DNA from: a virus
Taxonomy: Duplodnaviria > Heunggongvirae > Uroviricota > Caudoviricetes
IMG/VR virus record: IMGVR_UViG_2531839130_000013
Reading direction: 5' to 3' (one strand)
DNA: 45,266 nucleotides
The position numbers and the translations under genes were made by a program. The notes under the pieces are model-generated. The model saw only the letters and a list, made by a program, of their open reading frames with translations. It was not told the DNA's origin and searched no databases. Shown in pieces: positions 20,461 to 21,638 of this stretch (position 1 is the first letter of the stretch; the number at the start of each line of letters is the position of its first letter).

Positions 20461-20894
20461 CGTATTGAAATGAATAGTAAGAGTGCTCGCCTGATTCGTG
20501 AGTAACAGGCATTACAGCAGCCCTTCACTCTAAGGGGTTGCTGTAATGTGAGAAATAAAAAACCGGTCACAGGGAGCAGCTACACAGAAGCGGCCGGCGA
20601 AGACCGCCAATACCACCCATGCATTGATGTAACATACTAATGACAATAGCCGCTATTGATGTAAATGCAATGTTATGCATCGACGAAAATAAAAAACCGG
20701 CAGGGGAAATCCATTGAAGATTTGCCGGTGGCAAAAGAGGGCCATGTTTTTAACCTTAGTCGCAGAGTTACGGAGTGCAACTACGAATGCTGCCGGTATA
20801 TGGCTGAATGGCGTTTCAATGATGTACGTCATCTTATCTGTAAATGTTAATGACAAACGCTCTCATTTGTGCGGGTCCTTCCGGTGGGGTGGCC

Positions 20895-20945
20895 TGCCAC
20901 GGGGCGGCAGCGGCGCGGATTTTCGCTATTTATGAAAATTTTTCG
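20895..20945. other. cos site region (cosN/cosB-like) of a lambda-type packaging system
   Basis: ggggcggcagcggcgcggattttcgctatttatgaaaatttttcggg closely matches the lambda left-end sequence (GGGCGGCGACCTCGCGGGTTTTCGCTATTTATGAAAATTTTCCGG) and lies just upstream of the Nu1-like gene. Confidence 0.6.
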
Positions 20946-21089
20946 GGAAAAAGCGTGTCGGTACTTCTCGTGTATAACTCATTGTTTTTTCATAAATCAC
21001 ATCCGTAAAAGGTACGACATGAAAGTGCCCGAAAAAGACGTTTTTGAGCACTTCCATGTCGGACCCTGCATTTGATATGGAAATGTTTT

Positions 21090-21638
21090 ATGAAGGTTAA
21101 CAAAAAGAAGCTCGCGGAAATTTTCAACGTGGATCCACGAACGATTGAACGCTGGCAGTCTCAGGGGCTCTCTTGTGTCTCTGGTGGTAGTAAGGGGGTT
21201 GAATCTGTATTTGATACCGCCATGGCAATTCAGTGGTATGCGCAGCGCGAAGCCGATATTGAAAACGAAAAACTCCGCAAAGAGACCGAGGATTTGCGTG
21301 CGGCTGCGGAATCATATTTACAACCCGGCACCATTGACTATGAGCGCTACCGACTCACAAAAGCACAGGCTGATGCACAGGAACTGAAAAATGCCCGCGA
21401 AGAAGGGCTGGTACTGGAAACGGAATTGTTTACCTTCATTCTGCAACGTGTGGCACAGGAGATTTCGGGGATACTTGTACGTGTGCCGCTGACATTACAG
21501 CGTAAATATCCGGATATTTCACCGTCACACCTTGATGTGGTGAAAACTGAAATCGCAAAAGCCTCCAACGTTGCAGCTAAAGCTGGTGAGAGCGTAGGCG
21601 GGTGGATTGATGATTTCAGACGCACAGAAGGCAGCTAA
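21090..21638 (+). CDS. nu1: Terminase small subunit (lambda Nu1-like)
   Basis: [26 protein letters not shown]... aligns closely with lambda Nu1 (MEVNKKQLADIFGASIRTIQNWQEQG...). Confidence 0.85.

Follow-up and report, generated by a model that had tools for sequence, protein, structure and literature searches.

Lambda-like phages are defined by 12-base 5' cohesive ends that are similar to those of lambda (Feiss et al. 2015, PMC4669245). Differences in base pairs (bp) 7-12 of the end are common in this group. For example, N15 and phiD326 differ from lambda at bp 9 and 12, and Gifsy-1 differs at bp 8, 9 and 11. The CG dinucleotides that flank the end are conserved, as is cosQ. According to the same paper, the G2C change lowers the phage yield about 10-fold and the symmetric C11G change has no phenotype, and alterations to cosN's right half have no measurable effect on cos cleavage. 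The explanation offered is that small terminase subunit (TerS) bound at R3 anchors the large subunit (TerL) for nicking of the bottom strand. The terminases of lambda and N15 are not cosN-specific, and a 2-bp mismatch between the ends makes the yield about four-fold lower (PMC4669245). A survey devoted to natural cosN variation, that of Vahanian et al. 2017 (Virology 509:140), is referred to in PMC9026076, PMC12315714 and PMC9303873. The putative end of mEp213 is given as GGGCGGCGCGCT (PMC12315714), which is the same as the sequence that we extracted here.

The window that we analyzed is the whole stretch of 45,266 nucleotides of viral DNA in the IMG/VR record IMGVR_UViG_2531839130_000013. It carries what reads as a complete lambda-type cos, including cosQ, cosN and cosB, at 20873-21068, just 5' of intact terminase genes of the Nu1/gpA type (Table 1). 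The subsites were mapped from the annotations of the phage 21 records (OL657228 and M81255) together with a three-way alignment of the window, phage 21 and lambda (J02459). The site combines a cos of the phage 21 type with a cohesive-end allele of the Fels-1 type, and it is another natural case of well-described variation. As judged from its sequence, it obeys all the published rules of natural cosN variation set out in PMC4669245. We consider it very likely that this cos is functional and has the predicted ends, that it belongs to a lambdoid prophage from Escherichia coli or one of its close relatives, and that its packaging specificity is of the 21 type. The remaining doubt is due to the placing of the ends by homology, the spacing of 29 nt between cosQ and cosN, and the diverged C-terminal half of TerL.

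Table 1. Positions of the cos subsites, the terminase genes and the upstream elements, in window coordinates.
Feature	Coordinates	Strand	Basis
Stem-loop upstream of cos, not part of cos	20510..20548	+	Inverted-repeat search, folding, conservation
Direct repeat AAATAAAAAACCGG, copy 1, not part of cos	20553..20566	+	Exactly two copies
Direct repeat AAATAAAAAACCGG, copy 2, not part of cos	20687-20700		Exactly two copies
cosQ GGGTCCT, packaging-termination signal	20873..20879	+	Identical to cosQ annotated in phage 21 OL657228
cosN, 16 bp, CG-GGGCGGCAGCGG-CG	20900..20915	.	Alignment to lambda and 21
Predicted 12-nt 5' cohesive end GGGCGGCAGCGG	20902..20913	+	Alignment to lambda and 21
cosN-R3 spacer	20914..20950	+	33/37 identical to phage 21 bp 13-49
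cosB R3 AAGCGTGTCGGTACTT, predicted small-terminase binding site, 21 type	20951..20966	+	15/16 identical to 21 R3
cosB I1, predicted IHF site, AAACAATGAGTTA on the minus strand	20975..20987	-	11/13 identical to 21 I1
cosB R2 AAGGTACGACATGAAA, inverted relative to R3 and R1	21009..21024	-	15/16 identical to 21 R2 after a 1-nt indel
cosB R1 TTCCATGTCGGACCCTG	21052..21068	+	14/17 identical to 21 R1
Small terminase subunit gene (TerS), Nu1 / phage 21 gp1 homologue, 182 aa	21090..21638	+	Pfam Phage_Nu1 PF07471, E = 4e-82
Large terminase subunit gene (TerL), gpA / phage 21 gp2 homologue, 638 aa	21610..23526	+	Pfam GpA_ATPase and GpA_nuclease

The sequence-only reading had placed a lambda-type cos upstream of a Nu1-like gene. 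Both the site and the gene stand, but lambda is not its best match, since the nearest characterized relative is phage 21. In a megablast search against 50,697 phage records, the best match was to phage 21, at 87.7% DNA identity from 20899/20902 through genes 1 and 2. The two sites share the order and orientation of the subsites, the cosN-R3 spacing and the cosQ heptamer. They differ in the cohesive end at bp 8, 9, 11 and 12, in the C-terminal half of TerL, which has diverged, and in the spacer between cosQ and cosN, which is unrelated in sequence and 1 nt shorter in the window. In addition, the window upstream of cosN resembles cdtI and phi458, not 21. With lambda, the site shares the overall architecture, the cosQ heptamer, bp 1-7 of the end and the CG flanks. 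However, the window has R boxes of the 21 type (CATGTCGG), its TerS shares only 52.5% identity with lambda Nu1, and 4 of the 12 positions of the cohesive end are changed.

The cosB region is of the complex type, with the order R3-I1-R2-R1 and R2 inverted, and it lies directly 5' of genes of the Nu1/gpA family. The inverted repeats R2/R1 and R3/R2 were recovered independently by a repeat search, and I1 agrees with the IHF consensus WATCAANNNNTTR at 8 of the 9 specified positions when read by eye. The 28 nucleotides at 20914-20941 (CGCGGATTTTCGCTATTTATGAAAATTT) differ from lambda bp 13-40 at a single position (27 of 28 identical), a level of agreement that none of 100 shuffles matched. These had been described as a close match to lambda extending through a terminase-binding repeat. 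The match is real, but the segment is the cosN-R3 spacer, the right part of which (20931-20945) lines up with I2, an IHF-type site in the annotation of phage 21 (M81255). A canonical cosQ heptamer, which is expected about 30 bp 5' of cosN, lies just to the left of where the site had been thought to begin. It had been suggested that cosQ-like elements lie among the repeats and hairpin further upstream, and both the hairpin and the AAATAAAAAACCGG repeats are rejected as cosQ in view of this heptamer. The distance from the start of cosQ to the predicted top-strand nick is 29 nt here and 30 nt in lambda and 21, and the spacing of 29 nt is common to cos sites of the cdtI, mEp460, mEp213 and Fels-1 types.

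The region 20461-21089 is non-coding, and is followed by open reading frames of 182 aa from the ATG at 21090 and 638 aa from the ATG at 21610. The first product, TerS, is 92.9% identical to 21 gp1. Residues 17-24, which make up the recognition helix, read RTIERWQS in the window and in 21, and RTIQNWQE in lambda; residues 20 and 24 tell 21 from lambda (PMC4669245). Since the R boxes are of the 21 type and the TerS recognition helix is identical to that of 21, packaging specificity is predicted to be 21-type, not lambda-type. Consistently with this prediction, the R-box columns of the three-way alignment fit 21 and not lambda, and the helix differs from that of Nu1. TerL, which bears the endonuclease for nicking cosN, has 82% identity to 21 gp2 and 65% to lambda gpA. 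The head module downstream is intact, with Nu1, gpA, gpW, a lambda-family portal, an S49 protease, gpD and gpE all identified by Pfam. On the other side of the site, lysis genes, including a GH108 endolysin gene at 18690-19256, and two tRNA genes are found.

By alignment, the site is a mosaic. Its left arm, which consists of cosQ, the spacer and the allele of the cohesive end, is like cdtI, phi458 and Fels-1, and its right arm (cosB and the terminase genes) is like 21. To the left of 20899/20902, the matches are to cdtI, phi458 and phiSTEC1575-Stx2k rather than to 21. The left arms of cdtI, phi458 and mEp460 (AB285204, OP434518 and JQ182728) are near-identical to that of the window: positions 20688-20901 are 84-85% identical to this group, and over the 31 nt before the predicted nick the identity to cdtI is 100%. 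These phages have other cohesive-end alleles (GGGCGGGAGCGT in cdtI and phi458, GGGCGGGAGCGG in mEp460), and other cosB regions and terminases. Since the left side matches the cdtI group and the right side matches 21, we place the joint of the mosaic inside cosN (20899-20918). Salmonella phage Fels-1 (NC_010391) has an identical core, CCACG-GGGCGGCAGCGG-CGCGG, and the same spacing of 29 nt from the cosQ position. It differs in having AGGTACT at that position, an unrelated cosB (GATTTGGCGCATTTTTGATTTTTCATGCATCATCATCATG) and a terminase of a distinct, cdtI-like lineage. The Gifsy-1 end, GGGCGGCAGCGT, is also close, and the end in the window is the same with one further change at bp 12. N15, phiD326, Gifsy-1 and mEp213 all follow the same pattern, with changes confined to bp 7-12 and with the left half, the CG flanks and cosQ kept.

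Among 5,426 complete E. coli genomes, related stretches are present in 240, and in 58 of these they cover at least 80% of the query. The best match is 98.8% identical, and over 5 kb the highest identities are 96-97%. The exact prophage of the window was not found at 100% identity in these genomes, where identity over long stretches has a ceiling of about 97-98%. Similarly, no virion-derived isolate that joins a 21-type cosB with GGGCGGCAGCGG was found among the 50,697 phage records. A full-text literature search for the 12-mer and its complement returned only unrelated primer and construct matches.

The cohesive-end allele itself is widespread. The exact 21-mer CACGGGGCGGCAGCGGCGCGG is present in 69 IMG/VR contigs, whose right flanks fall into three cosB classes: Fels-1-like in 41, 21-like in 21 and cdtI/mEp-like in 7. 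Their left flanks have either GGGTCCT or AGGTACT at the cosQ position. An invariant core between unrelated flanks argues for a functional, exchangeable module. The named hosts of the allele are E. coli and Salmonella. Other alleles are found in the phage records, namely GGGCGGCAGCGT in Gifsy-1, GGGCGGGAGCGT in cdtI and phi458, GGGCGGGAGCGG in mEp460 and GGGCGGCGCGCT in mEp213. Among the 127 cos sites with a canonical cosQ that were listed, there are at least 11 alleles, and the lambda allele accounts for 54% of the matches listed. When the degenerate cos pattern CCGCG N6 CCGCCCCG N20-24 AGNACC was compared with genome contigs, the result was mostly chance matches in GC-rich genomes; among the genome matches listed, only that in Xenorhabdus thuongxuanensis looked genuine.

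The variation is concentrated in the end's right half. Over 109 distinct cos regions of the lambda, 21 and Gifsy types, the columns of bp 1-6 have a mean entropy of 0.38 bit and those of bp 7-12 a mean of 1.01 bit. In the same regions the mean is 0.0 bit for the right-flank CG and 1.1 bit for the cosQ-cosN spacer. Thus, with 1.01 bit against 1.1 bit, the right half is about as free to vary as the spacer. The alleles are also shuffled independently of both cos arms. One account of this pattern is that cosN is the recombination joint of the mosaic and that the diversity of the cohesive ends is kept by selection. A 21-type terminase would start at its own cosB and stop at the cos of another prophage in the same cell, one of the cdtI or Fels-1 type, and the resulting chromosome with mismatched ends would resolve into a hybrid cos. 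Diversity would then be kept because mismatched ends lower the viability of inter-prophage or satellite hybrids. Taken jointly, we regard these two proposals as unlikely. The shuffling of alleles and the variability of bp 7-12 are no less consistent with neutral drift than with diversifying selection.

Pairings of TerL with alleles were read from 80 loci that encode close relatives of the TerL in the window. TerLs at least 99% identical to it are paired with GGGCGGCAGCGG at most loci, with GGGCGGAAGGCG at two (L094 and L095) and with GGGCGGGAGCGT at one (L107). Co-variation of TerL with the cosN allele is therefore ruled out, since near-identical TerLs sit beside three alleles. In ten IMG/VR contigs, a TerL that is 100% identical is present together with the same cos.

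These pairings bear on whether the site has a new cosN specificity, in which a diverged nuclease half of TerL would recognize GGGCGGCAGCGG and would not cut the cosN of lambda or 21. When TerL is compared with 21 gp2 in blocks of 50 aa, the N-terminal half is 88-100% identical and the C-terminal (nuclease) half is more diverged, at 49-86%, as would be expected of a changed specificity. On the other hand, the TerLs at L094, L095 and L107, which are 99.4-99.8% identical to that of the window, are paired with the two other alleles, and the allele in the window serves at least three cosB/terminase lineages, including the distinct terminase of the Fels-1 type. Furthermore, the terminases of lambda and N15 are not specific for cosN, and right-half mutations leave cleavage intact (PMC4669245). 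A new specificity is therefore very improbable. In the reading that we favor, a functional cos of the 21 type, the nicking geometry is assumed to be the same as in 21, even though the nuclease half of TerL has only the 49-86% identity to gp2 given above.

The positions of the ends follow from the register of cosN. The pattern CGGGGCGGNNNNNNCGCGG has a single match in the window, at 20900-20918, where 0.15 would be expected by chance. Compared with the lambda and 21 end GGGCGGCGACCT, the predicted end has mismatches at bp 8, 9, 11 and 12 only. Base pairs 1-7 and both CG flanks are those of lambda, the features by which membership among lambda-like ends is judged (criterion taken from PMC4669245). 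Partial two-fold rotational symmetry of cosN has been used as a further criterion (PMC9026076). In the 16-bp cosN of the window, 10 of 16 positions are two-fold symmetric, the same number as in lambda and about the same center. From cosN to R3 (20914-20966), there are no indels relative to phage 21, and the first base of the linear genome of phage 21 (OL657228) falls at 20902 of the window in the alignment. The cdtI record ends exactly at the window equivalent of 20901. We place the frame at 20902-20913 because of the absence of indels between cosN and R3, the flanking CGs, the identity of bp 1-7 to lambda and the 10/16 symmetry. From this frame, we infer nicks at 20901/20902 in the top strand and at 20913/20914 in the bottom strand. 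The mEp460_4F5 record (LR595868) was also considered. Its assembly ends were rejected as physical termini, since the record was opened 5 nt left of the predicted nick, and it was set aside as evidence on the ends, since 3 nt are missing inside its cosN.

The cohesive end given in the sequence-only reading, ggggcggcagcg (20901-20912), is thus one base too far to the left. That reading was correct that the end differs from that of lambda, which it does at 4 of 12 positions. However, the word divergent that was used there is too strong. All four changes are in bp 7-12, the half that varies naturally and tolerates mutation (PMC4669245), and the same 12-mer is also present in Fels-1 and in the 69 IMG/VR contigs. 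Nicks placed differently from those of lambda, either in the frame 20901-20912 or with another overhang length and with cosQ 1 bp closer, would fit the spacing of 29 rather than 30 nt. Such a placement could also draw on an unrelated palindrome, CTGCC...GGCAG, centered on 20902, and on a related cosN family with an ambiguous register among TerL relatives of 90-96% identity. Against this, the distance from R3 to cosN, which sets the bottom-strand nick, is the same as in 21. In addition, the lambda frame keeps the invariant CGs and the symmetry, which falls to 4/16 when the frame is shifted by -1, and the right-flank CG is invariant in this register across the 109 distinct cos regions. We give this alternative a very small chance of being right. 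Finally, it is highly unlikely that the prophage is cryptic and that its cos has decayed and lost function through the four substitutions. The absence of the exact prophage at 100% identity from the 5,426 E. coli genomes would fit decay, but 69 viral contigs and Fels-1 have the same 21-nt core beside unrelated flanks, which is the signature of a conserved functional module, all the terminase and head open reading frames are intact, ten contigs combine an identical TerL with the same cos, and the substitutions are only at positions that are tolerant in experiments (PMC4669245).

Returning to a functional 21-type cos, we suggest the following course of packaging, by analogy with lambda and 21. 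During late growth, the gp1-like TerS would bind the 21-type R3, R2 and R1 boxes, and IHF would bend the DNA at I1. TerS bound at cosB would anchor the gpA-like TerL on cosN, where nicks in the bottom strand after 20913 and in the top strand after 20901 would leave a 12-nt 5' overhang, GGGCGGCAGCGG. Packaging would then run rightward into the head genes and end at the next cos by means of cosQ and cosN. The right half of the end (bp 7-12) adjoins cosB, and anchoring may make nicking there insensitive to sequence, so that bp 7-12 could drift or be exchanged freely among lambda-like phages.

The predicted site gives this prophage family probable genome ends and a probable orientation, which are useful for annotation and for end calling in the style of PhageTerm. 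We predict that DNA of this phage would anneal imperfectly with lambda or 21 ends, as 4 of 12 positions are mismatched and with only two mismatches the yield already falls about four-fold (PMC4669245). The site is one more natural example of a known rule, by which the half of cosN next to cosB can vary freely and enterobacterial lambdoid phages exchange both cos arms and alleles of the cohesive end. Our understanding of the terminase or of cos is unchanged.

Upstream of cos, an imperfect 14-bp hairpin had been proposed as a cosQ-like or terminator element. The hairpin is present, as a 14-nt inverted repeat (20510-20523 and 20535-20548) that is 93% complementary and folds at -28.7 kcal/mol (z = -3.9), but it is neither cosQ-like nor a canonical terminator. 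As an intrinsic terminator it is rejected, since it is followed by UGAGAAAUAAAAAA with no U-run and a terminator scan calls none on either strand. The stem is kept in 17 distinct relatives, with double-sided changes at two pairs, mostly in one lineage. In these relatives, the hairpin is always followed by GAGAAATAAAAAACCGG, and the AAATAAAAAACCGG motif is always 3' of the hairpin. Speculatively, the hairpin could act where the lysis-region transcript ends, in RNA processing or stability or as a boundary element. The direct repeats reported at about 20553 and 20688 were found exactly twice in the window. The description of 20460-20880 as AT-rich is only modestly true, with 44.9% GC for this region against 51.6% for the window.

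Among the IMG/VR relatives whose large terminase subunit (TerL) is 90-96% identical to that of the window (loci L110-L141), there is a second cosN family, GGGTCCTTTCCAGAAYCTGAAACACCG[G/A]GGG[T/G/A][C/A]NNNNNN..CGCGCAAAAACGCGCTATTTATG, with the SARVGY motif of TerL encoded ~960 nt further downstream. Across ~30 loci, the 6-nt variable block occurs in at least 14 distinct versions, while the flanks of this block are nearly invariant. Phage 21-type R3 boxes are present in part of these loci. The nick register of this family is ambiguous. To keep CG on either side, the frame must move by 2 nt with respect to R3; read without gaps, the site is GG|GGTC......CG|CG. 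Measured against phage 21 gp2, the TerL of the window (21610-23526) is itself a mosaic. Identity per 50-aa block is 88-100% over residues 1-250 but falls to 49-86% in the nuclease and C-terminal half, and the portal-binding tail is both shorter than and unrelated to that of gp2.

In the cos sites of the type found in Salmonella phage Fels-1 (L013-L081 and Fels-1 itself, L083), 34 contigs have AGGTACT and two further contigs have AGATACT at the cosQ position, where lambda-like phages have GGGTCCT. Natural cosQ variation "is not apparent" according to PMC4669245. A lambda-like cos core, GGTACT-N21-CG|GGGCGGCGCACT|CGCGG, was found in Xenorhabdus thuongxuanensis, and this sequence match suggests that the cos family reaches past Escherichia and Salmonella. 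Among the IMG/VR matches listed, four contigs (L298, L302, L323 and L329) each have a pair of complete cosQ-cosN units that are inverted with respect to each other and spaced about 390-940 bp apart, and another (L305) has three direct cos units inside 11 kb with differing alleles. Neighbouring satellites (PICI-like elements) or tandem prophages could account for these multiple-cos contigs, as could artefacts of assembly.

Coordinates of the additional features in the window and in the compared loci
Feature	Sequence	Position	Remark
tRNA-Met	window	16957-17032	just upstream of lysis cassette
tRNA-Arg, anticodon tct	window	17130-17206	just upstream of lysis cassette
Conserved stable stem-loop and A-rich motif	window	20510-20566	-28.7 kcal/mol, z = -3.9
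Second copy of A-rich motif	window	20687-20700	
138-bp tandem repeat	window	26280-26780	inside S49 protease / gpC-like ORF 25297-26913
cosQ-position variant	Fels-1 (L083)	around 885-891	
Lambda-like cos core	NZ_MKGR01000009 (L194)	around 2850	minus strand

Upstream of cos in the window, the stem-loop shows some compensatory changes among relatives, in which it is invariably followed by the A-rich motif GAGAAATAAAAAACCGG. The stem-loop is neither a canonical terminator nor a part of cos. After the tRNA pair comes an ORF of 141 aa that matches the TerB domain of Pfam weakly, and together they look like a moron-like insertion (16957-17807). In the head protease gene, the tandem repeat comprises 3.6 copies with 93% matches and encodes ~46-aa repeats, EAKGRE.LA..LAEQPGMTVEQAKTLLAAAPATGTASSGDQIIALP, which sit in the scaffold-like C-terminal part of the protein.
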